Assembly: GCA_000708835.1 (NCBI GenBank)
Contig: DF237517.1
Location: forward strand, 1 to 37,241
Reading direction: 5' to 3'
DNA length: 37,241 nucleotides
Source of the DNA: Klebsormidium nitens
Taxonomy: Eukaryota; Plantae; Klebsormidiophyceae
Position numbers and translations under genes: made by a program. This document shows positions 2,870-35,332 of this stretch, in pieces. The number at the start of each line of letters is the position of its first letter. Positions within the stretch are counted from its first letter, which is position 1. The notes beneath the pieces are model-generated. The model ran no database searches. It saw nothing but the letters and a program-made list of their open reading frames with translations, and was not told where the DNA came from.

Positions 2870-3547
2870 ATGCACTTTCTTACGTTTGCATCCGGTAGTC
2901 CCTATGTAGAATATGCGAGATTTCTTTCAAACACTGCATTAAATGTAGCTCGGTTCGTCGACTCGTATACATATGATCCGACAGACTTTTGTGCGGACTT
3001 TTGTAACACACCTCATGATGTCCTCTCGGTGTCCAGGGGATTTGGTCTTTGGTGTTGGAAGAGCATGATCATCAAAAGACGCTTGAGCGAGCTGCAACCA
3101 GGAGAGATCCTGTGCTACTGTGATTCGTTATACTATTTCCTGCAAGATTTCCGGGGTCTCGCATCCAAGTTGTTGACAGAGAATGACGTTGCGCTCTTTA
3201 AGAACAAACCAAGCGAAGGTGCTTTTATCGAAAGGGATTGGACGAAACGCGAAGCTTGCGACGAGCTCCATGTCGATTTCGAGACACACGGTCAAACTCC
3301 GCAAGTTTGGGGAGGGTTCTTGCTCATTCGAAAGTCCCCAGACTCTGTGGCGTTCGTTGATGAATGGTACCGCATGTGTGGTCATAGAAATCTAATGGAC
3401 TTTGAAACTTCTGGACGAGAAATCTCGACGTTTCGAGAACACCGAAGTGATCAGAGCGTAATCTCGTTGTTGGCTAAGAAACACGGAATACGAACCGACA
3501 GAGAATTTCCTGTTGGGGTCCTTTACAATGTTCGAGTCGGAAGTTAG
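2870..3547 (+). CDS. Putative glycosyltransferase of the type common in giant viruses
   Basis: Intronless 225-aa ORF with RGFGLWCWKS-II, YCDS (DxD-like position), QVWGGF and HRSDQS motifs. Confidence 0.6.
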   Translation: MHFLTFASGSPYVEYARFLSNTALNVARFVDSYTYDPTDFCADFCNTPHDVLSVSRGFGLWCWKSMIIKRRLSELQPGEILCYCDSLYYFLQDFRGLASKLLTENDVALFKNKPSEGAFIERDWTKREACDELHVDFETHGQTPQVWGGFLLIRKSPDSVAFVDEWYRMCGHRNLMDFETSGREISTFREHRSDQSVISLLAKKHGIRTDREFPVGVLYNVRVGS

Positions 3548-3613
3548 TGATTGATGTGGCACAGCTGCACCGCGTCAAGCATTGACAATCTTTTTGTGCC
3601 CAATCACAAAAGA

Positions 3614-4141
3614 ATGTCTTACTTCATCTCCGTGAGACTTCATGGAGGACTCGGGAACAAATTGTTCCAACTAATTTTTGCATACGAATCAGCGCGGCGC
3701 TTGAAACGTCCTTTTAAAATCGTGGAGGTCGAACCCAATCGCCACTCTGACCTGGACTACTTCGATACCGTTTTCGCTTTCTTCCGACCCTTTGTTGATT
3801 TTGATGCTCGAAGGTTGGTGACGAGTGTGGTACGCGAGAATGCGAGCGATCCATGGACTTACACTCGATATGTGGTACCCGATTACCGGAATGTCATGTT
3901 CAGTGGATACTTTCAGAGTTATAAATACGCATCGACATCATTTTCGATACGTGAACTACGTTCAATGAGTGGTCTGACTTTATCGGTCAAAAACGACGTG
4001 GTGACACGATTTTCGGGTACCACACGAGGAATATTTTTGCATGTTCGACGTGGTGATTACCTGACGACACCACATTTATGTCATATGTTGGAGCTCGGGG
4101 TTTACTATTCGAGCGCGCTCGGAATAATGGCAAGTGGGTGA
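3614..4141 (+). pseudogene. GT11 alpha-1,2-fucosyltransferase-like gene, C-terminally truncated
   Basis: GGLGNKLFQ, GYFQS and HVRRGDY motifs are present. The ORF stops about 20 aa after HVRRGDY, before the usual SDD region. Confidence 0.75.
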
Positions 4142-9825: not shown

Positions 9826-10542
9826 TCACGTCCTTTTACGGAATGCGAATGTGTCATACAGTGCTGAAATAACACTCTCATCTTTGGAATAGTCTTGTGG
9901 AACTGACAAGTATTGAGGGAAGCTACTCCACCGCTTCAGGCTGAGCCCTGCTGCCAAAGCTGGACCTATGATGTCCTCTGGTCGTACCAACATCTCTTTG
10001 CTGGCTCCATTCTCAAAGTAGTACGTGCCGTGCATGTCAAATTCCATAATGTCACCCGCCCGCCGCACGCTGAGGATGCTGTTCCTGTAGCTGCTGCTGT
10101 TGCCCATGAGCTGATCCACCCTATCACCATTCAGGACAGTGCCGATAAAGTATCCACCATGCTTCAATGCACCACTGACTGCACTGAGGAAGTTGGCAAA
10201 CTTCTCTGGATCTTCCATGAGATAGTGAATCGCAAAGTTGCATGTGATGACATTCCACCGTTCCTGTCTTGCATATCGTTCTAGCCGATTGCATACGTCC
10301 GCTATGACGAAACGGTAGGCTGTCTTGCATGTCTTGTTCCGCCTTCGCGCTTCTAGGATGGCCTCCTCACTGGCATCCAGGCCCATCGCATCATGAATGC
10401 CAAACCGCTGCCACTTGTGCAAATCTGAACCTGGCCCACATGCCAGGTCAAGGAGGGAGGTGCTGGGAGCGTCCCCGCCTTGAAGAGCTTCGCTCAACGC
10501 CTTGGTCTTAACCATATTGTGATACCGTCTAAGACTCTCCAT
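9826..10542 (-). CDS. Stand-alone mRNA cap guanine-N7 methyltransferase, virus-like
   Basis: Intronless 238 aa with LRRYHNMVK, LLDLACGPGSDLHKW (SAM motif), CNFAIHY and GGYFIGT. Confidence 0.85.
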   Translation of the reverse strand: MESLRRYHNMVKTKALSEALQGGDAPSTSLLDLACGPGSDLHKWQRFGIHDAMGLDASEEAILEARRRNKTCKTAYRFVIADVCNRLERYARQERWNVITCNFAIHYLMEDPEKFANFLSAVSGALKHGGYFIGTVLNGDRVDQLMGNSSSYRNSILSVRRAGDIMEFDMHGTYYFENGASKEMLVRPEDIIGPALAAGLSLKRWSSFPQYLSVPQDYSKDESVISALYDTFAFRKRT

Positions 10543-23124: not shown

Positions 23125-23421
23125 TCAGAACTCATTCCGGGCCGCCTTCTGCTTGCCCGTCAAACGTTCAGCCCTACTTTCATTGGCGAGACTGGTGTTG
23201 TTCGTGACAGATCCTGCAACCTGCTTTGCCGTTCCTGCAACCTTGTCGCCAGTGGCCTCTGCCTGCTTCCGAGCCTTTGCAGCGTCTATCTCTGCTTGCC
23301 CCTTCTCACGCTGTGCGGCACCCTTGCTTTTGAGGCGATTACTGAAAACCTTCCCCGTGGCTTCTTTTGAAGCTCCGACGGCCTTGTCAACATAACCTGA
23401 TGTCTTGTTGGACGTGGACAT
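23125..23421 (-). CDS. CsbD/LEA-like small hydrophilic stress protein (98 aa)
   Basis: A/K/G/T-rich with the pattern DKAVGASKEATG...EKGQAEIDAA...DKVAGTAKQVAGSVTNN, resembling CsbD-like and fungal HMP1-like proteins. Confidence 0.7.
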   Translation of the reverse strand: MSTSNKTSGYVDKAVGASKEATGKVFSNRLKSKGAAQREKGQAEIDAAKARKQAEATGDKVAGTAKQVAGSVTNNTSLANESRAERLTGKQKAARNEF

Positions 23422-23450: not shown

Positions 23451-24277
23451 TCAGAAGGCGGCACACGTGCAGTTGCATTGAAGGCGCTGCCGATTATCTT
23501 GCAAGGTCATCCGCCTGCTCTCTGGTGCTCTCAAAGTACTAGAGCTCTGCTTACAAGCGTACTCTCCGCCGACCCATCCCATTGGGACACAGTCGACGAG
23601 TTCGACCTCGCTTTTGGGGTCGCTCATCACGAGCTTCACGGAGATTGGAGCCTGAATCTGCCCGTTGTGGACGAAGCTCGTGCCCCAGTCACGCTTTAAA
23701 GGGACGTAACTGCCCGCAGGCGAGCGAATGAGCATCGCATCGTACGAACCCTGGCCGGCCAAGTTCAGAACTCGAAGGGACTGCCAATAGGGAGTGCCTT
23801 CGATCGATACAACAGGAGGCCCCACTCTCTTGCAATGCACTCTGCGGTATTGCAGTGCAAAGTGGCCGATCGCCATCGTACTTACCAGCTCGCTGAAGGC
23901 TTTCCCAGACAAGTCGAAATGATGTGCATCGGCACCACACCACTGCTCGTTGCCCTGAGTCGGGCAATAGTCGGTGATCGTAACCACGACGGACCTGCCA
24001 GTACATACGGGATTTCCTAAGCACTTGATCTCGTAGCATGCCCCGCAGTTTGCACCGCCCTTGTAAAGCTGATCGCTGCCGGCTGCAAAGAGAGGGCCGT
24101 AGGTCGCCCCCTGGATTCCAGCAATGCTGCGGCTGAGGTCACTGAAGCCGCATTTCCAGCATAACCGCCGGACACGTCATCAACTCCCGTATAGTAAGTA
24201 GCGGTCCCTGCCAGCCAGCCCGGCTCCTGAGAAACTACGCAGCTGGTTAAAGATAGGAGCACAAAGAAGAATATCAT
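23451..24277 (-). CDS. Intronless expansin (signal peptide, DPBB domain, CBM63-like domain) with one apparent -1 frameshift at 24153-24155
   Basis: MIFFFVLLSLTSCVVS signal peptide, then ATYY, (G)KCGF, YG...AAGS..LY.GG..CGACYEIKC, VTITDYCP, HHFDLSG.AF, YRRVHC and RDWG. Adding one A to an AAA run gives a 275-aa ORF. Confidence 0.9.
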
Positions 24278-24314: not shown

Positions 24315-24596
24315 TCACCGTTTGTAGGTGGCTGCAGCGAGCTGCATGGCATCCTTGTACGTCTTGCCAAGCGGTTTGATGTCATCGTAAACACTCTTCA
24401 CGTGGTCTAACCACGCCTGGAGTTTAGGATTATTGATGGCATTCTCGTGCCTTTTCCGAGACACAATGGTCCTGGACTTTCCATCATGAGTCGCGTACAT
24501 GAGGTCCTTCTTTTTGAGGCCCGATGAGGTGTGGTCCTTCTCAGACTTCATGACCTGCCTCCTCTCTAGTCTGTACTTTTTGATGTGCGATGCCAT
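24315..24596 (-). CDS. DVNP: DVNP-like (dinoflagellate/viral nucleoprotein) basic protein, 93 aa
   Basis: RRQVM...HTSSGLKKKDLMY...TIVSRKRH...LQAW..V matches the recalled DVNP pattern R.QV...T.GGL.K.DL...IVSKK...AW. Confidence 0.75.
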   Translation of the reverse strand: MASHIKKYRLERRQVMKSEKDHTSSGLKKKDLMYATHDGKSRTIVSRKRHENAINNPKLQAWLDHVKSVYDDIKPLGKTYKDAMQLAAATYKR

Positions 24597-24679
24597 TCTT
24601 TTTGATTCGCTGTGCAATGGCATCACAAAAAAATTGGGACGAGAATTTTGCACTCTGTTTTTCCTGGACAGTATGACAG

Positions 24680-25903: not shown

Positions 25904-26467
25904 ATGGAGATGACGCCAGCTTACAATGGCCAGGAGGACTACTCGCTGCTGGAAACAAAATCGATCAGCGACTGGATGTTTCTCGCAGACCTGCCCGATG
26001 CTGCCGCATTTGCCAAGGCTTCTTTGGAGGTCGATCGCCTCCTGAAGCCCTTGCAGACAGAGCAGGAGGCCTGTGGAAAGGAGGTTGCAGAGGCCCGTCG
26101 GAGGCTGTCAACGTTCGAGGAGGGTTTGTCCCGGGTCATGAATCACGTGCATGAGGCCTCCGCCATCGAAGTCATACAAAGCCTTGTCAAAGATGTGAAG
26201 AACGGGCTGGAAAGGGACTTGACTGAGAAGGTGCTCCGGTTGGAACAGATACATGCAAAGCTGGCTGCTTTCTACGAAGTAACAAGCAAGATGAAACGGG
26301 CAATCAATCCTGACATGTGTGGGGAGTGCCCGGTCTGCACTCACGCTCAGGTCAGGCTTGCAATGATTCCGTGCGGTCATTGCATATGTGACGAGTGCTA
26401 TCGAGGCCGGAGCGTGTGTCACTACTGCCGCAGCCTGGTTGAACGGGCATTGCGGATCTATCTCTGA
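25904..26467 (+). CDS. Coiled-coil protein with C-terminal C3HC4 RING finger (putative E3 ligase)
   Basis: CPVC...PCGHCICDEC...CHYCR at the C-terminus. Intronless. Confidence 0.85.
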   Translation: MEMTPAYNGQEDYSLLETKSISDWMFLADLPDAAAFAKASLEVDRLLKPLQTEQEACGKEVAEARRRLSTFEEGLSRVMNHVHEASAIEVIQSLVKDVKNGLERDLTEKVLRLEQIHAKLAAFYEVTSKMKRAINPDMCGECPVCTHAQVRLAMIPCGHCICDECYRGRSVCHYCRSLVERALRIYL

Positions 26468-27362
26468 GCCAAGGGTGATCCAAGGCTTCCCTCGCTGTCG
26501 CTCTCGACTCGACGTTCCTGTTGAGCAGCCGTTTCAGAAAGTCTTTTGCGGGCAGGCTGAGGTCCGCATTGTCAATGTCAGGCTCGTCCCTCAGCACGGC
26601 CTTGAAGATCTCCGAGTCCGTCCTCCCAAAGAAGGGCCGTGTTCCGATCAACAGGATGTATGTCAGGACCCCCACGCTCCACTCGTCTGCCTTGAGATTG
26701 TAGGCCTGCTTTAGGACTTCTGGCGCGACAAAAAATGGGCTCCCCACTACTTCCTTGACAGTTTCGTTCTCTTGACACTTGTAGGACAGACCAAAGTCTA
26801 TTGCTTTTATGATGTTGTCCTTCTCGTTGGCAAAGATGAAGTTTTCAGGCTTGATGTCCCGGTGGATCACGTTCTTCTCATGCATGTAGGCAACTGCCGT
26901 GAGGATCTGCCACACCAACTCGACCGCGGTTGCCTCCTTGTATGGCCCCTGGTTGCTGAGGATGTCATCCATCAGCTCGCCACCTTGGCATAGCTCCATC
27001 ACAATGTACACGTTCATCAAGTCCTCGTAAGCTGCCATGAACTCCACTATCCCCTCGTGGCCTGACAGCAGGCTCAAGATCTGGACCTCTCTGTGAACGT
27101 CCATAATGGCGGCCTCACTGATCATGGAGCTCTTTGGGATGATCTTCACGGCCACAGTGCCGCCCTTTTGTGACTTGGCCTCTGCGATGTGCGTCCTGCC
27201 AAAAGATCCGCGACCAATCTCCTCCTTGACCGTGTACATGTCCTTAAAGTGCCGGTTGAACCCAAAATCTTTGTTTGCCAGGGTTGTCCTTGGAACAGTC
27301 TGCTCTGGCGATGGTTCATCCTGGGTCTCATGATCTCTTTGCTTCCCGATGCACAGCCCCAT
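26352..27362 (-). CDS. Intronless CDPK-related Ser/Thr kinase (CRK-like) lacking the C-terminal regulatory domain, 336 aa
   Basis: MGLCIGK acylation motif, DFGFNRHF, GRGSFG, VAVKIIPK, DVHREVQIL, VYIVMELCQGGEL, HRDIKPEN, KAIDFGLS, VGSPFFVAPEVL, RPFFGRTDSEIF and HPWL. Confidence 0.9.
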   Translation of the reverse strand: MGLCIGKQRDHETQDEPSPEQTVPRTTLANKDFGFNRHFKDMYTVKEEIGRGSFGRTHIAEAKSQKGGTVAVKIIPKSSMISEAAIMDVHREVQILSLLSGHEGIVEFMAAYEDLMNVYIVMELCQGGELMDDILSNQGPYKEATAVELVWQILTAVAYMHEKNVIHRDIKPENFIFANEKDNIIKAIDFGLSYKCQENETVKEVVGSPFFVAPEVLKQAYNLKADEWSVGVLTYILLIGTRPFFGRTDSEIFKAVLRDEPDIDNADLSLPAKDFLKRLLNRNVESRATAREALDHPWLRDRSAMPVQPGCGSSDTRSGLDSTRHICNDRTESLQA

Positions 27363-27369
27363 GTGCCTC

Positions 27370-28140
27370 TTATACCGCTGTATTTTCTCCAAAATGCAGC
27401 TCATAGATGCATGTAAAGAATTCCTGAAGGCCACCGAACCAGGGAAGGTGGGATTCTGCCGTGACCAAGTAGAACCTCCCATCGTGCTGTACGACACAGG
27501 TGGGGTCTGTGATGGCCCGCTCGAGCTGGGCCTCCACCTCTGCAAAGCTCATCTGCCAGCTCTTTACATCCAGCCGCCATACAAACGGGTTGTGTTTGAC
27601 CTCGCCCTTGGGGCCTGCCGTCGTACGGTGTCCAAAGCCGACGTAGACACGGTCGTCGACCGGGGTCTTGTAACCAGGGGTGCCACCGCGCAGGCTGTAG
27701 TCCGGGCTCTCCTTCCGGGCCCTGACTCGCCTCCAAGTATCGGGGTAGGGCGACTCGGTTGTAGACAGCACGGTCAGGGGTCGGAGCCACTCGATGCAGA
27801 GGAGCTCGTCGCCGTGGGAGATGAGGCTGAGATTCTTGCCCTTTGAGGGAAGCTTGCACGGTCGGAAGTTGTCAGCTGGCACGATCAAGCTGCTGCTGCC
27901 CCAGGTGTTGTCCAGCAGGTAGTCCGTGCCCTTGTGTGAGATGCACCTCGGGTCCTCCCCAGGGCACGTTTGGCCGAAATCATGCACGATGGTCCAGCCA
28001 CGTGGGTCAATCAGGCAGCGGCCCAGGATCCTCTGGTCGTATCGGAGCCGATAGAAAGAGTCAAACATCCCGGTCGCGTCGCTTCGGAGTATGTAGAAGA
28101 TAGTGCCCGGCGGTGTAGGCACTCGGGCAGTGTTCCTCAT
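27370..28140 (-). CDS. Putative five-bladed beta-propeller glycoside hydrolase/transferase (GH130/BMT-like)
   Basis: GEDPR, GKNL, LRGGTP and GFGH motifs in the expected order. Confidence 0.55.
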   Translation of the reverse strand: MRNTARVPTPPGTIFYILRSDATGMFDSFYRLRYDQRILGRCLIDPRGWTIVHDFGQTCPGEDPRCISHKGTDYLLDNTWGSSSLIVPADNFRPCKLPSKGKNLSLISHGDELLCIEWLRPLTVLSTTESPYPDTWRRVRARKESPDYSLRGGTPGYKTPVDDRVYVGFGHRTTAGPKGEVKHNPFVWRLDVKSWQMSFAEVEAQLERAITDPTCVVQHDGRFYLVTAESHLPWFGGLQEFFTCIYELHFGENTAV

Positions 28141-28240
28141 TGTGATGCCGCGGATGCAGTCGGTTGGAAGCATGAGTGTCCTGTAGGCTACACAGGAGAA
28201 ACGGCCACCGATGGACCGCACGGATTCAGTTCCGGCTCTG

Positions 28241-29914
28241 TTACTTCCATCCTATCCCGGTTGACGTTACAGTTGGCTTGTTGGCATTGTTGTTCTTGGA
28301 CACAAAAGGATTTTTGCTGGTGTTTGTCTGGTTGAAGCCGTTTACGGCCATTGCTTTTGACAAGTTCGACCCTCTTACTGCCTGAGCTGCATTGACAGAT
28401 TGCCCAATGTTCTTGGACACGAAAGGATTTTTGCTGGTGTTTGTGTGATTAAAGCCGTTTGCAGCCATTGATTTTGAGAGGTTCTGCCCGGTGAGCGCTC
28501 TTACAGCCTCTGCGGCATTTGCGACTTGGACACCGTTCTTTGCACCAACCACGCTCTTGGTATTGTTCTGGATGGTGTTTTGCAGAACTTTACTCGGAGC
28601 TCCCGCCTTCTTTGCAATATTTTTAAGCCCTTCCTGACCGGTTGCTTGCAATCCGTTGCCAATGAGGGCAACCTGCGTTGCTGCTAACTTGGAAGCGTCA
28701 TGGTCGGGTCTTTGGTTGAGCTGCGACCTAGCATTGTTGCTATTGAAGTTTGCAAAGTTGGGAGCATTGATTGCTTTTGCCGCCAAAACCACTGCATCAG
28801 TGGGGGGCATACCACCGGTGGGAGTCGTTGCATTCTGCGCTACTGCAACAAGCACGTCCGATGGGTTTCCTGTCTGTGCAGCACTTGCAATGCTTTCGTG
28901 ACCTTCCTTAGAAGCTACGAGGTTTTTCTTCTTCAAGGCTGTCGCAACCGCCTCAGGTGTCATCTTTTCTGGTTGATGAATGTCCTTGACGGCTCCAGTG
29001 ACTGCATTCACTGGAGGAGGGGCCCCATTCGTGGTTACAGCCGCGTTCGCAATCGCCTTTGCAGTGCTCTCTTCTCCCAATGGTGTGCTTTCAGCAACGA
29101 GGCGTTTGCCATCGGCGGATGCATCCAAGCCGTTGTTCTTTAGCGCAGCATCAACCTGCTTGTTGACCCGCTTGTTCTGATTGGCAACCCAGCTCTTCAT
29201 ATTGCCTTTACCTTTCTCAAACGCGTCCTTGTTCATGAGAGGAACCCCGTTGGCAATGCGCTTGTCGAGTGTCCGATAGTCGGGGTGCATAAACCGACCC
29301 GTCAAGGTAGTCCCAAAACGGTGATTGGCATTCCTATACTGATCAACATCTTCGAGATTCACCTTTGACCGATAAACTTTTTTAAGGTTCAGGTCATCAC
29401 CTACGTTTGCTGGGTCGTAGAAGATGTGAGTCTGACCGTCCTCTTGCGCGTCAGGAAGGTTTTTTGTGTTGAAGTCAACGTAATCCGGGTTGAGCGAGAG
29501 CCGGTCAGGCGGAGGGCTCAGACGCGATGGTGTTAAGAGTTTGCTCACCACCTTGTAAAGGCTAATATCGCCACCCTGTGCCAGAGTGCCCCTCTCTTCG
29601 AGGATCTTCCGCATCACGAAGCTCAAGCGGGCGCTGCGGGTTGCCTCGCTTGCCGCGTTGTAATCGTTGCCGTCCAGAGAAACGACGAGTTTGCCATCTT
29701 TGACAGTGATCTTGGCCTTTTCATTGCTCTCGTACCCTGGTGGGTGCTCAATGTAATTCACGAGCTCCCTTGCCAACTCGTCCAGCAAATCCTGCACGTG
29801 CTTTTCATAGTACAGAAAGGTATCACTGCCATATTCGTGCTTCGTAGCCTCCGATTGTGCGTCACGCAACTCCATCAACCACTTGTCTACAAAGTCCCCG
29901 ATCGTCACTTGCAT
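28241..29914 (-). CDS. Asn/Ala/Lys-rich protein with duplicated C-terminal repeat, possible virion protein
   Basis: 557-aa intronless ORF. NLSK(S/A)MA(A/V)NGFN(H/Q)TNTSKNPFVSKN occurs twice. Confidence 0.7.
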   Translation of the reverse strand: MQVTIGDFVDKWLMELRDAQSEATKHEYGSDTFLYYEKHVQDLLDELARELVNYIEHPPGYESNEKAKITVKDGKLVVSLDGNDYNAASEATRSARLSFVMRKILEERGTLAQGGDISLYKVVSKLLTPSRLSPPPDRLSLNPDYVDFNTKNLPDAQEDGQTHIFYDPANVGDDLNLKKVYRSKVNLEDVDQYRNANHRFGTTLTGRFMHPDYRTLDKRIANGVPLMNKDAFEKGKGNMKSWVANQNKRVNKQVDAALKNNGLDASADGKRLVAESTPLGEESTAKAIANAAVTTNGAPPPVNAVTGAVKDIHQPEKMTPEAVATALKKKNLVASKEGHESIASAAQTGNPSDVLVAVAQNATTPTGGMPPTDAVVLAAKAINAPNFANFNSNNARSQLNQRPDHDASKLAATQVALIGNGLQATGQEGLKNIAKKAGAPSKVLQNTIQNNTKSVVGAKNGVQVANAAEAVRALTGQNLSKSMAANGFNHTNTSKNPFVSKNIGQSVNAAQAVRGSNLSKAMAVNGFNQTNTSKNPFVSKNNNANKPTVTSTGIGWK

Positions 29915-30705: not shown

Positions 30706-33700
30706 CTATGCTCCGATTTTCCGCGCTCTCTCCAACTCAAGCAGGTCTTCCTCCCACAGCGCCGAAGAAGTGTTGCCCTTGAGGAGGTCAAGGGCTGACG
30801 CCAGGGCCTCTTTGGCCGCCAAGAGCCTCTCCACCTCGTCCACCGTCAGGCTCGACAGGGGGAGCGACATGAAGCGCTGATGGTAGGCCTCGGGGATCCC
30901 TGCCGCGCTCATGTCGGCACGGATGTCTGCCACCTTGGCTTTCAGAAGTCGGACACCCCCATCGAGCACACTCGTCACAAAGAGCGCCCGGTAGGAACAG
31001 GCAGCCAGCTCCTCTTCTTTTGCTCGGATCAGGTGCAGCAGGCGGCGTTCGTAGAGGCTCAGCCGCACCCCAAAGAACTCCCGCAGGATGTCGGTCACGG
31101 TCTCAAACCGTCTTATGTGGCCGTTCGAGTCGAACAGGTGCATGTTGTTGGTGCTCAGCTTCCTGGTGAGGCAGAGCTCCTTCTCGATGTCAGGCAGGAT
31201 AGTCTCGAGCCTCTCGGGGCTGAACTCCACGGTGAAGTCCACAATCGTGTCCGTGCATTCGTTCTTGATGGACCGGGCCCCTAGCTTGTCGCTCTCCAGG
31301 AAAGCCTTGTAGGCGTCGATCGACGTCCCGATTGGCAGCTCCGTGATGCGGATGCGGCTGCTGTCGAGCCTCTCGTAAACCCCGGAAACGACGTACTCCC
31401 CCTTTTCAGACTCCCGGACGGTCCCCTTGAAGCCAGCCCAAGAAGGGTGCATCTCAATCGGGTCGAGGCCTCGCAGCATTGCCCGGATGTTGGCAATGAC
31501 GTCCTCCAGCGCGTGGTTGGGGACGTACGTGGAGAAGCCAGTGCCGATACCGGAGGCACCGTTCAGGAGGATCAAGGGTACGGTCGGGACAAAGTAGGCT
31601 GGCTCTATGGCCTTGCCGTCCTCTTCAAGGTAGGTCAGGAGGGGGCCGTCGGCAGGGTGGACAGCGCAGAGTGCAGTTGGAGTCAGGTGCGTGAAGAGGT
31701 ATCTCGGCGCGGCACCTGCGACCGCCCAAGTTGCTTCTTGAGGGGCTGTCTGCGCTTCTCTTGCAGCTTTTGACGTTCGAGATAGTCATTGGCACTGTAA
31801 AAACATGCAGAAAGGGCGGCACCGTGAGCTGCAAGACATGCAGTATCCTGTATGCCAAGCACCTTGGTTGTCACCACAGGCCTGTAACATGATGCAAGGG
31901 TGGCGCCCACCAGTGACCTGCCTGACATGCTGTCTTGTATTGGCACGCAGGTTTTGAACACGGCTCGGATGCAGAATACTCACTGTCCTTCCCGTTGGCC
32001 AGGCGCGTCCCGAACATCCCGACCGGTTCGAGCAGGTTGAGGTTGTTGGATCCCACAAACGTCTGCGCCAGGTTAATGATGGCGCCGCTCAGACTCTCCT
32101 CCCCTATGACAAAAGTAAGCTTTCACCCGTCAGATTCTCGACCCTCTCAATTTTCGAAAGGTTGTCTGACGTCAAATATGCAGAACATTGTAGTCAACTG
32201 CAAACTTGCGCACGTACACGGATGGAGCGCAACTTTCAAAAGTATTTCAAAATCTGGGACCTAGTAAATTTGACTATAGGAGGGGGGTTGAAAACACTTG
32301 CTCATGCGCGCATGCGTGTTGTAGCCATGCCGGTAAGGATAAACCAAGACTTTGTAGTTCACAGCATGCTACAGCCATTCCAGTAAGAAACAGAGGTTTG
32401 TAGTTTACAGCAAGCTCACGCATATACACGGATGGAGCGCAACTTTCAAAAGTATTTCAAAATCTGGGACCCCCCTTTTTTGACTATAGGAGGGGGGTTG
32501 AAAACACTCGCTCATCCGCGCATCTGCGCAAGAGGTTCGCCTCTCACCGTGATGGTATGCACTTCCCTCTGCGACCGCCGCGGCTAGCTGGGCCACCTTG
32601 AACTCCTCCCGAACGTTTCTTTTGATGCTGACGTGGATGATCTTCCTCGTCGAGGGTTTCAGACCGTCGATTGCACTGGGGATGGAGCGGCGGACATCAG
32701 CAATGGAGTAGTTGACAAGCTCGGTGTCCACCATCTCTGAGAGGGTCACCCGCTCGCCTACCGGCTCCGGCGCTGGGTTTGCAATCGCCTCAACGATCCA
32801 CCTCTTCCTGTCGTTTGCCCTTGCCTTTTGAAAGGCTAGCTGCATGGCCGCGGCCGCCCCGGGGTCCGTTGTGTACGTGACCTTGCTCATGTTGCTGAAG
32901 ATCTCCTTGGCATCCTTGGCGGTGGACGTGCCCAGACCTGCATCGCTCAGAAGCTTAGGAAAGTGCTCTTGGGGCAGAGCGTCAAGAAATATGGCAATGG
33001 TGGCTCGCCTGGAGACGCTTATCCAGGTGCCCGCTCCAGATGTCAGTCGACAGAAGGTCAGGATTCGTCATGATTTTGCTGCTGGAACCATCGAATTGCT
33101 CACCGCAGACACAGCCATCAGAGCTGGGCCTTCAAAGATTGCATACCTCAACTATCAGCTCTTCGAGACAAGTGCATACATAAGCCTTATGGGTGTTTCC
33201 AAACCTTTCCGGGGTATGGGATTTTCGTTCCTGCTGCTGAACACCGCACTCGCGCACATGTACTCCCTCGGTGTCAAGGAAGTGCAGCTCTTCTGTTATC
33301 CTTTAGCCGAAGGGCAGCAGACAGGCGAAGACGCACACTTGAGCAGACTACAGGCCCTCTACACGCGTTACGGTTTCCAACCAGTCCAAGACGAGAGGGA
33401 GAGGTTGACGGGTCCCGAGAGGTACCGAGTCCCTGGAAGTTCGCACCTTTCAGGAACTTGATTCGCCAGGCACCACGGGCCTCGCTCGTCTGTGCCCACT
33501 CCCTGTACTGCCGCTCCGTGAAGAACGCACGCGTCAGGCTGCTCTTGAACGCCCTGACCACGTGGGTCCTCAGGTGCCACGCAAACCCCAGCTGCAAAAG
33601 AATCCTTGTACTTTCGAATGGAGGAGACGGGGACAGCGGCAGACAAAGGCACGAGCAAAGACAAGAGTGCGGAGAACCAGCATACCATTGTCAGAGAGCC

Positions 33701-35332
33701 TTCGTTGGATGTGTGGCTGACCTCGATAAGCTCCGGCCAGCCAAACTCGACAAAGTTGAGGAAGAGCGCTCGGATGTGCGTGCCATCGCAGTCAGCATCC
33801 GTGAGGAGCATGACTCTCCCGTAGCGCAGCTCCAAGAGCGACTTGTACTTGTGGCCCTCTCGGAGGCCCAGGATCTGCTTGAGGTTGGCAATCTCCTTGT
33901 TCTCCGCAATGGCCTTGATTGGGGCGTCCCTGCAGTTGAGGATCTTCCCCCGCAGCGCAAAGACCCCGTACAACTCCCTGCCAACCACAGAAAGCCCTGC
34001 CATGGCGAAAGCACGAGCGCTGTCCCCTTCCACCACCAGGAGCGTGCATTCGGAGCTCCGCTTGCCACCCGCTTTGTTGGCATCCTCCAGCTTGGGGATC
34101 CCCCTGATGACGCTCGTCTTGTTCCCGTCCGTTCGTGACAGAGTCTTGGCCTCTCGCTCCCTTGCCTTTGCAATGATCGCGTCGGCAATCCCTAGCTTGC
34201 CCACCACCTTTCCAACCACCTCGTCTGGCACCTCGCACGTGCTCCCAAAGAGGCTGGCCTTTAGCGTGCACATCTCCTTTGTCTGAGAGCTGAAGGTGGG
34301 GTTGACGAGCGTCGCATTCACAAAGAGCATCAGCTTTTCCTTGACATGTGCTGGCCGGATAGTAGCCCCCTTCACCTTGGCCTGCAGCATTTCGGCAACC
34401 CTCCGGGTGAGCGGCGCAACCACGTGCTCCACGTGGGTGCCGCCCAGAGCCGTGTGCACGCCGTTGACGAACGAGATGGCTTGGAAGCCGTCCGCGGAAG
34501 CAGCTACACAGACCTCCCAGCGCTCGTTTGGGCGGAAGAACACGCGCGGCGCCTCCTTCTTGCACCCGATGAACAGCTCGCAGTAGCTCTCAAACCCACC
34601 CTTGGACGGGAGGTTCTTGCCATTGAAAGACACCCTCACGCTCGGACGCGTGCAGGCTGCGGCGTCGTGGGCCCTCCGGTGGAGGAGGCTGACAATCTCG
34701 TCGTTCAGGCGTTCCATGGAGAAGACAGCGAGGTCGGGTTTGAAGGAGATCTTGCAGTAGCCGTGCTTGGGATTCTTGGGGCGTGAGATCTTTGGCGGCT
34801 TGCACTTGGACATCCCGTCCTCCCAGACCTGGCAATACTTGAGCCCTCTCTCTAGGTCCAAGGTCTCAACAGCAAAGGATTGGCTGAAGACGTTGGTCAG
34901 CTTGGCCCCGTACCCGTTGCGCCCGCCGGTGGTCCGCTCCTCCGAGTCATCATAGTTTGAAGAGGTCAGGAGGTTGCCAAAGATCAGCTCAGGTATGTAC
35001 ATCTTGTAAGAGTCGTGCTCAACCACGGGGATGCCTCGCCCGCTGTTGGCCACGCTGATAAGCCCTGCCTCCACATCAACCTCAACCTTGATGGAGTCGA
35101 CGGTCGGGTCCACCTTTGTCTGGTCGATCGCGTTGACCAGGATCTCGTCCACAATCTTGTAGAGGCCAGGGACGACAGTGATCTCCTTCTCGATGGCGCG
35201 CCCTTCCTCGATGACCCAGGTCTTGGTCTGCTCTGGGACAACGGACCCTACATATGAATCTGGTCGAGTTCGGATGTGCTCGATGGGGGTGCAGCGCCTG
35301 TAAGTTGCTGAGACCTGAGCAGTCGAGGCCAT
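30706..35332 (-). CDS. TOP2: Type IIA DNA topoisomerase, short viral type, 1091 aa after splicing; exons 35332-33722, 33591-33447, 32937-32548, 32103-31984, 31715-30706
   Basis: [38 protein letters not shown]|LGTS, DGLKP, YHHG|EESL and KDS|AAPRY (catalytic Tyr at 31701-31699). Four GT-AG introns restore the frame (3276 nt). No eukaryotic C-terminal domain. Confidence 0.95.
32215..32523. repeat. About 99-nt direct repeat x2 (32215-32313, 32425-32523) inside TOP2 intron 3
   Basis: TACACGGATGGAGCGCAACTTTCAAAAGTATTTCAAAATCTGGGAC...TTGACTATAGGAGGGGGGTTGAAAACACT occurs twice, 210 nt apart. Confidence 0.95.
32991..33461 (+). CDS. GNAT-family acetyltransferase nested antisense in TOP2 intron 2 (156 aa)
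   Basis: Motif [21 protein letters not shown] and motif B LYTRYGF. Confidence 0.75.
   Translation: MAMVARLETLIQVPAPDVSRQKVRIRHDFAAGTIELLTADTAIRAGPSKIAYLNYQLFETSAYISLMGVSKPFRGMGFSFLLLNTALAHMYSLGVKEVQLFCYPLAEGQQTGEDAHLSRLQALYTRYGFQPVQDERERLTGPERYRVPGSSHLSGT

Follow-up and report, generated by a model that had tools for sequence, protein, structure and literature searches.

The window, that is, the whole 37,241-nucleotide stretch of DNA analysed here, shows a 100% match to a Klebsormidium nitens record; it is a giant-virus (Nucleocytoviricota) insert in the K. nitens genome. It carries an intron-free gene for a tail-less CRK-type protein kinase. We consider it likely that this gene was captured once, long ago, from a CRK of a streptophyte host, and that the viral lineage kept a minimal kinase, predicted to be membrane-anchored and independent of calcium and calmodulin. 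The relevant features of the window are as follows:

26352..27362, minus strand: tail-less CRK-like Ser/Thr kinase ORF, 336 aa, no intron
27342..27362, minus strand: MGLCIGK, predicted N-myristoylation (G2) and S-acylation (C4) anchor, from the sequence motif
26466..27236, minus strand: kinase domain, residues 43–299, with HPWL at its end (Pfam PF00069, E=1.7e-65)
26352..26465, minus strand: 37-aa C-terminal read-through, antisense to the RING gene (pLDDT <50 at residues 303–336)
25904..26467, plus strand: convergent RING-finger gene, 187 aa (PF13920, E=2.2e-5, under the curated cut-off)
27370..28173, minus strand: upstream hypothetical gene, 267 aa, Nucleocytoviricota-like (Atlas 0.95–0.96)
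24315..24623, minus strand: DVNP (dinoflagellate/viral nucleoprotein) gene (PF19060, E=2.6e-11)
9826..10542, minus strand: mRNA cap guanine-N7 methyltransferase (PF03291, E=4.5e-23)
30706..35332, minus strand: virus-like type II topoisomerase in five segments, 52% to viral contigs
23451..24277, minus strand: expansin with signal peptide (DPBB_1, EXPB1_D1, Expansin_C), no apparent intron, split by a frameshift near 24150

The kinase and its C-terminal read-through

The kinase ORF (27362–26352, minus strand) is translated without stops into 336 residues, and its N-terminus, MGLCIGK, fits the MGxCxxK motif. Residues 43–299 align to the full Pfam Pkinase profile (positions 1–263), and the catalytic set is present: GxGxxG from residue 50, K73, E92, HRD (167–169), K171, N174, DFG (189–191), APE (213–215), D226 and R287. 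The first-pass annotation had described an intron-free CRK-type ORF with the membrane anchor and all catalytic motifs, and this description holds. Matches to NCBIfam were those of generic kinases, all under cut-off, and among solved structures the closest is that of a calcium-dependent protein kinase 3 (9vhu, 219 bits). The AlphaFold2 model (mean pLDDT 73.6) shows a complete bilobed kinase fold, with pLDDT below 50 at residues 1–23, 205–210 and 212–223 (activation segment region) and 303–336.

The protein is shortened at both ends. After HPWL, which ends at 26466, it continues for 37 residues as against 188–195 in three land-plant CRKs, and 48 residues precede the Gly loop as against 128–135 in four land-plant CRKs, indicating a shortened variable domain. 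The junction/calmodulin-binding region and the degenerate EF-hand domain that characterize CRKs are absent, as are the four functional EF-hands fused to the kinase in CPKs/CDPKs proper; Pfam detected no EF-hand family in the ORF. The window protein is thus CRK-derived and not a canonical CRK. A hidden tail exon was rejected: when the window was searched by tblastn with the tails of 10 host CRKs/CPKs, the best hit (E=0.042, 24% identity) lay about 15 kb away. These results bear out the earlier claim that the junction and EF-hand region are missing after HPWL.

The 37-residue extension is an antisense read-through and not a regulatory tail, junction or CaM-like domain. The stop codon of the RING ORF (26465–26467) abuts the HPWL codons of the kinase, so that the RING ORF and the kinase domain end at the same point and the whole 37-residue extension lies antisense to the RING ORF. 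For the tails of relatives we examined whether, with the register kept, they are compatible with Cys/His codons of a RING finger on the complementary strand, a fit expected by chance at about 0.13 per site. The zinc-ligand positions fitted at 8/8 sites in P0003, P0122, P0007 and P0010 and at 4/4 in P0005, despite just 6–17 tail residues identical with the window. The fit was absent at every site in P0006, P0124, P0009 and P0014, reached 2/3 in P0008 and 2/8 in P0020, and amounted to 0–2 of 8 sites in seven host kinases. The fit in five relatives indicates that the tail is the shadow of a neighbouring RING gene conserved in part of the family.

Differences between copies were also compared, run X5, with its excess of C>T and G>A changes, being left out of the counts. 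Among the 40 of 75 difference rows listed, 17 of 21 in the kinase-only stretch and 8 of 11 in the RING-only part are synonymous. In the kinase/RING overlap the proportion is 3/8 in either frame, so these differences are silent on which frame is constrained, and they were discarded as proof of constraint on the RING frame over the tail.

The viral insert

The assignment of the window to a giant virus is based on the DVNP gene, the virus-like topoisomerase II, the cap methyltransferase and the viral-type upstream ORF, all found in K. nitens DNA. It agrees with the viral context and the streptophyte host proposed in the first-pass annotation, this host of the viruses being already published (PMC5294986). 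Topoisomerase II scored 565–618 bits against four viral proteins picked among the best matches and 495–503 bits against the human and yeast enzymes (no plant enzyme was in the comparison). The cap methyltransferase is 31% identical to an ORF located beside topoisomerase II in the viral locus L084. The product of the upstream ORF is assigned by Atlas (0.95–0.96) to clusters that are 82–95% viral, mostly Nucleocytoviricota, a recognition that lies under the threshold of the tool. An IMG/VR scan for DVNP confirmed one stretch and returned no locus. The gene at 24315–24623 is a DVNP-family gene carried by a streptophyte-infecting giant virus.

None of the hallmark genes MCP, PolB, A32 and VLTF3 was found among 83 window ORF translations scanned with Pfam (27 and 56, in overlapping sets). 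The K. nitens genome is reported to hold five or six copies of each, and several distinct viral inserts have been argued (PMC5294986). Pfam also recognized host-like genes in the window, namely LRR-DUF900 and U-box.

Several other genes of the window deserve mention. Four gaps separate the topoisomerase II segments, three of them with GT..AG ends as judged by eye, suggesting that this viral core gene is interrupted by spliceosomal introns. The expansin, whose best PDB matches are plant beta-expansins, is located between the DVNP gene and a CsbD-like gene, and contigs of a second copy (runs X1 and X5) show an indel near 24150. Viral inserts with captured plant genes (expansin, U-type cyclin) were published for Klebsormidium in 2017, and the viral expansins of K. 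nitens were described as adjoining VLTF3 (PMC5294986). The window expansin may be a further copy of these, since VLTF3, unlike in the published setting, was not found in the window. The CsbD-like stress protein of the viral block (98 aa, 23125–23421, minus strand) matches its family with E=1.5e-9, just under the curated cut-off. An ORF of 557 aa (28241–29914, minus strand) has a near-duplicated Asn/Ala-rich C-terminal segment; no family match in Pfam and no viral-contig relative in IMG/VR were found for this orphan, and a divergent second copy is present in run X1. Two intron-free ORFs at 2870–4141 (plus strand), one with a weak match to glycosyltransferase 11, have a lower GC content (46%) and a high CpG ratio (1.2–1.4) and possibly represent a fragment of different origin.

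The gene upstream of the kinase also precedes it in P0004, P0008 and one contig of run X7. Contigs from a differently labelled organism thus link these genes: the X7 contig connects the upstream gene with the kinase, and one from run X8 connects the RING gene with the kinase-domain end. In run X6, which is only presumed to be RNA, 270 bp of the upstream gene are covered but no part of the kinase, which is uninformative on expression. The IMG/VR scans revealed no relatives of the upstream ORF.

A tail-less family beside the CRKs

The window kinase and 18 further 90%-identity clusters form a family of about 20 tail-less kinases with within-family identity of 48–96%. Fifteen clusters, at 53–90% identity to the window kinase, rank above every plant CRK; P0020, P0288 and P0401 complete the family, and angiosperm CRKs come next in the profile search. 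Seventeen of the 20 family rows end 3–45 residues past HPW, three break before it, and none carries the CRK tail. Many family ORFs are metagenome gene-caller calls, which are blind to a spliced tail; the spliced NCBI models that keep HPW (P0002, P0126 and P0130) end 6–37 residues past it. Family ORFs span the whole kinase domain without introns, several of them on contigs of 14–90 kb. The best 120 matches of a search for longer proteins included no close tailed relative, and no tailed protein with more than 59% identity to the family was found.

All 16 family rows with an N-terminus start with MGxC and have 41–65 residues before the Gly loop, as compared to 128–135 in land-plant CRKs. The catalytic residues are conserved, with D169 in 19/20 rows and D189 and D226 in all 20. 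All 18 family rows of the alignment have D or E at the position of E204, an acidic residue in the activation loop that we take to be activating. Decay is evident in part of the copies: in P0004 the HRD motif reads HRN and the C-terminus is broken, and P0016, P0017 and P0401 are truncated or frameshifted. The lesions G50D, D169N, G207E, S208N and E215K in P0004, P0015 and P0016 are each one G-to-A change away, as would be expected from deamination of methyl-cytosine, judging from the protein alignment. Viral genes of K. nitens are reported to be strongly methylated (PMC12344493), and the kinase copy in the algal genome is probably silent.

Four K. nitens gene models (GAQ89841, GAQ91107, GAQ87935 and GAQ92039) are the only named members of the family, and all are fused models on short scaffolds of 25–89 kb. 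GAQ89841 is the top match of the window kinase (100% identity, 94% query coverage), but in this model the upstream ORF is spliced to the kinase and the MGxC start is lost; GAQ91107, a second K. nitens copy, likewise fuses the upstream ORF with the kinase. The fused GAQ89841 model is probably an annotation artefact, because every relative with an N-terminus starts with MGxC, and it was rejected as the true gene on these grounds. The public K. nitens "protein kinase" models (P0002, P0004, P0126 and P0130) thus represent the kinase fused to unrelated upstream ORFs, the partners being the viral-type hypothetical protein, RNase H and an F5/8 type C domain. All four are probably artefacts and could inflate counts of the CDPK family.

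Flanking DNA was seen for the window's own subclade, and the other two subclades are regarded as viral by extension. Their fused neighbours are RNase H and the F5/8 type C domain, and Atlas gave just 0.83 for the neighbour P0127, with no usable match. The deepest subclade is formed by P0020 and P0288. Four exact-word scans of IMG/VR, of limited sensitivity, returned as relatives of the kinase only two generic kinases at 31% identity. A metagenome scan with generic kinase words in 1/64 parts gave as its best match a full-length plant CRK transcript (L001) and no family locus.

In phylogenetic trees the family is monophyletic (100/99 under LG+G4 and 100/100 under LG+C20) and falls inside the clade of CRKs and group-IV CPKs (96/97 and 99/97, respectively). 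Its union with the CRKs is supported by 99/94 under LG+C20 (38 rows) and by 73/71 under LG+G4 (59 rows). In the LG+C20 tree it is sister to the Chara, Closterium and land-plant CRKs (85/59), and two alternative placements were not rejected (p-AU 0.122 each). Of 72 rows, 13 (near-duplicates and the viral kinases L081/L082) were left out of the LG+G4 tree, 34 out of the LG+C20 tree and AU test, and 38 out of the tree with L081/L082; the sample included no full-length Klebsormidium CRK, and the searches had yielded neither PPCK nor PEPRK sequences to add. Rows were assigned to groups (CPK-IV, other CPK and some CRKs) by their motifs, source names being available for some rows only. The CRK affinity claimed in the first-pass annotation is favoured, CRKs also being the best full-length matches; the tree of CPKs and CRKs that it called for places the family in the CRK/CPK-IV clade, beside the sampled CRKs and not inside them.

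Of 23 columns separating 21 CRKs from six group-IV CPKs, the family agrees with CRKs at 12, with CPK-IV at two and with neither at nine, and it matches CRKs at just four of nine CRK-derived columns. In all 20 family rows the nearest CRK (51–59% identity) is closer than the nearest CPK-IV (46–53%), and I188 of the AIDFG motif is CRK-like throughout. The CRK marks H53, A209 and A246 and the PPPSPA motif are missing from the family, PPPSPA being absent also from three algal CRKs.

Two readings that the first-pass annotation had itself named as contrary to capture were rejected. A generic viral kinase is contradicted by identities of at most 29% among the best 50 BFVD matches, and by the kinases L081/L082, which are 31% identical and stand outside the family in the tree on very long branches. 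A recent retrocopy is contradicted by the best identity to any sampled full-length CRK, at most 59% in a sample without a full-length Klebsormidium CRK. The suggested capture from mRNA would fit the absence of introns, especially since topoisomerase II of the same insert has them.

If the donor was a stem member of the CRK and group-IV CPK clade with working EF-hands, removal of the tail would have been truly activating, as in engineered constitutive CPKs. The missing CRK marks and PPPSPA would agree with such a donor, as would the LG+G4 tree, which does not settle the placement, and the AU values for both alternatives. We nevertheless regard it as unlikely in view of the mixture-model support for the family with CRKs, the greater closeness of every row to a CRK, the CRK-like I188 and the three algal CRKs that equally lack PPPSPA. 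The chances are similarly small that the loss of tail and introns had already taken place in the host, in a tail-less CRK paralogue of the Klebsormidium lineage from which viruses later took the trimmed gene. The lack of known context for the deepest subclade leaves room for this order of events, and plants offer a precedent in PPCK/PEPRK, from which the junction and CaM-like domain are gone (PMC5482843); it is opposed by the four named K. nitens members, which are all fused models on short scaffolds, and by the decay-type lesions in several members.

That the gene is a host retrocopy which inserted into the already integrated viral DNA and does nothing for the virus appears very improbable. 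Such an event would account for the kinase being in no free-virus contig of the IMG/VR scans and would be in line with the LRR-DUF900 and U-box genes of the window. However, the order upstream gene–kinase–RING recurs in divergent copies and in the differently labelled organism, and the deep divergence within the family, its conserved catalytic residues and the lack of any closer tailed protein are difficult to reconcile with it. Equally remote is the idea that the protein serves chiefly as a decoy at the membrane, drawing partners away from host CRKs/CPKs, with catalysis secondary: fixed family changes near the substrate groove (S53, P209, F211, G246 and E251) and the poxvirus precedent of a captured MLKL kinase-like domain (PMC10583209) speak for it, whereas catalytic residues are almost invariant across deep divergence. 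Ancient capture of a host CRK thus remains the preferred reading.

Predicted function and significance

The closest known counterparts of the family are the plant CRKs (Arabidopsis CRK1/CRK5 and tomato CRK1; group C3 of PMC5482843), which share the MGxC anchor and a CRK-like kinase domain (44–55% to the window protein). Common to both are also AIDFG and G[ST]RPF-type motifs and a sister relationship in the mixture-model tree. The family differs from them in lacking the junction, the calmodulin-binding or degenerate EF-hand region, PPPSPA and introns, in having an N-terminal domain of 41–65 residues rather than about 130, and in its viral context and branching outside the sampled CRKs.

Engineered constitutively active CPK constructs consist of the variable and kinase domains only. 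The family shares with these truncations the plan of a lipid anchor and a kinase without junction or CaM-like domain (PMC9561101), and differs in being natural, old and nearer to the already Ca2+-independent CRKs, so the gain from truncation may be small. The PPCK/PEPRK kinases are likewise CDPK-family members without autoinhibitory and CaM-like domains, assigned to subfamily B6 (PMC5482843), whereas the window family falls in the CRK/CPK-IV clade in trees without PPCK/PEPRK sequences. Generic giant-virus Ser/Thr kinases (BFVD; L081 and L082) have in common with it the fold and carriage by Nucleocytoviricota, at the low identities given above.

The mechanism suggested by these features is as follows. 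Myristoylation of G2 and acylation of C4 would direct the kinase to the plasma membrane of the host; such targeting by G2/C4 lipidation is reported for tomato CRK1 (PMC5983578). Without a junction or calmodulin site and with the acidic E204, the kinase would be on whenever made, and viral transcription alone would then set its timing. In the infected cell it may phosphorylate CRK-type membrane targets such as transporters, channels and receptor-kinase partners, and thereby reset ion fluxes or stress signalling; CRK5 is described as associating with transporters and a receptor kinase (PMC11989534).

The first-pass annotation had likened the gene to a captured retroviral oncogene, deregulated by removal of its tail. 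Deregulation of this kind applies to CPKs, in which the junction acts as a pseudosubstrate (PMC9561101). Arabidopsis CRK3, 5 and 8 are reported to be spontaneously active without Ca2+, the role of the CRK junction being given as unknown (PMC11989534), and calmodulin raises substrate phosphorylation just slightly (PMC11989534, PMC5983578). The oncogene analogy is therefore too strong. Loss of the tail most likely strips host inputs (calmodulin, partner docking) from an already active kinase instead of switching on a silent one, and the likelier gain from truncation is freedom from host calmodulin and partners together with compactness.

Capture of host genes by giant viruses is itself known. 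The kinase, unlike the expansin and U-type cyclin captures of Klebsormidium, is not mentioned in the main text of PMC5294986 or in one supplement (Figure S5 aside). In the mainly open literature no prior report of a virus-borne CRK/CDPK family was found, the NCLDV–CDPK link there concerning a host CDPK only. The virus-borne kinase family is real and apparently undescribed. With it, a plant-specific signalling kinase joins the list of host genes taken up by giant viruses, here in a group of viruses for which inserts in streptophyte algae are the sole record. Gene counts may be distorted, at least four annotated K. nitens kinases belonging to the family; nine group-C3 genes are reported for K. 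nitens and eight for moss (PMC5482843), and the nine may include the four viral copies.

The family also provides a natural test of the function of the CRK junction and degenerate EF-hand tail, called unknown in PMC11989534. In this lineage purifying selection has maintained the kinase although its tail is gone, which shows that the role it has there, whatever that may be, does not require the tail. The same source states that CRKs occur in land plants only and are absent from algae (PMC11989534). P0286 (Chara), P0327 (Closterium) and P0284 have CRK-type kinase domains with weak EF-hands and cluster with land-plant CRKs. The family bears on CRK origins, as the Chara and Closterium proteins group with CRKs and it branches at or below them.

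A broader picture may be drawn more tentatively, with slightly less than an even chance of being correct. According to it, the giant viruses that infect streptophyte algae possess a signalling-kinase family of their own, plant-like in type and acting at the plasma membrane, derived from a CRK captured before the split of the Chara, Zygnematophyceae and land-plant CRKs. This kinase would have been pared at both ends to a calmodulin-free unit of lipid anchor and kinase, and the viruses would employ it, alongside the expansin and cyclin that they also captured, to gain control of plant-style signalling. If so, it would be the first virus-encoded effector of the CDPK family, a minimal CRK of natural origin and fossil evidence that CRKs are older than land plants.
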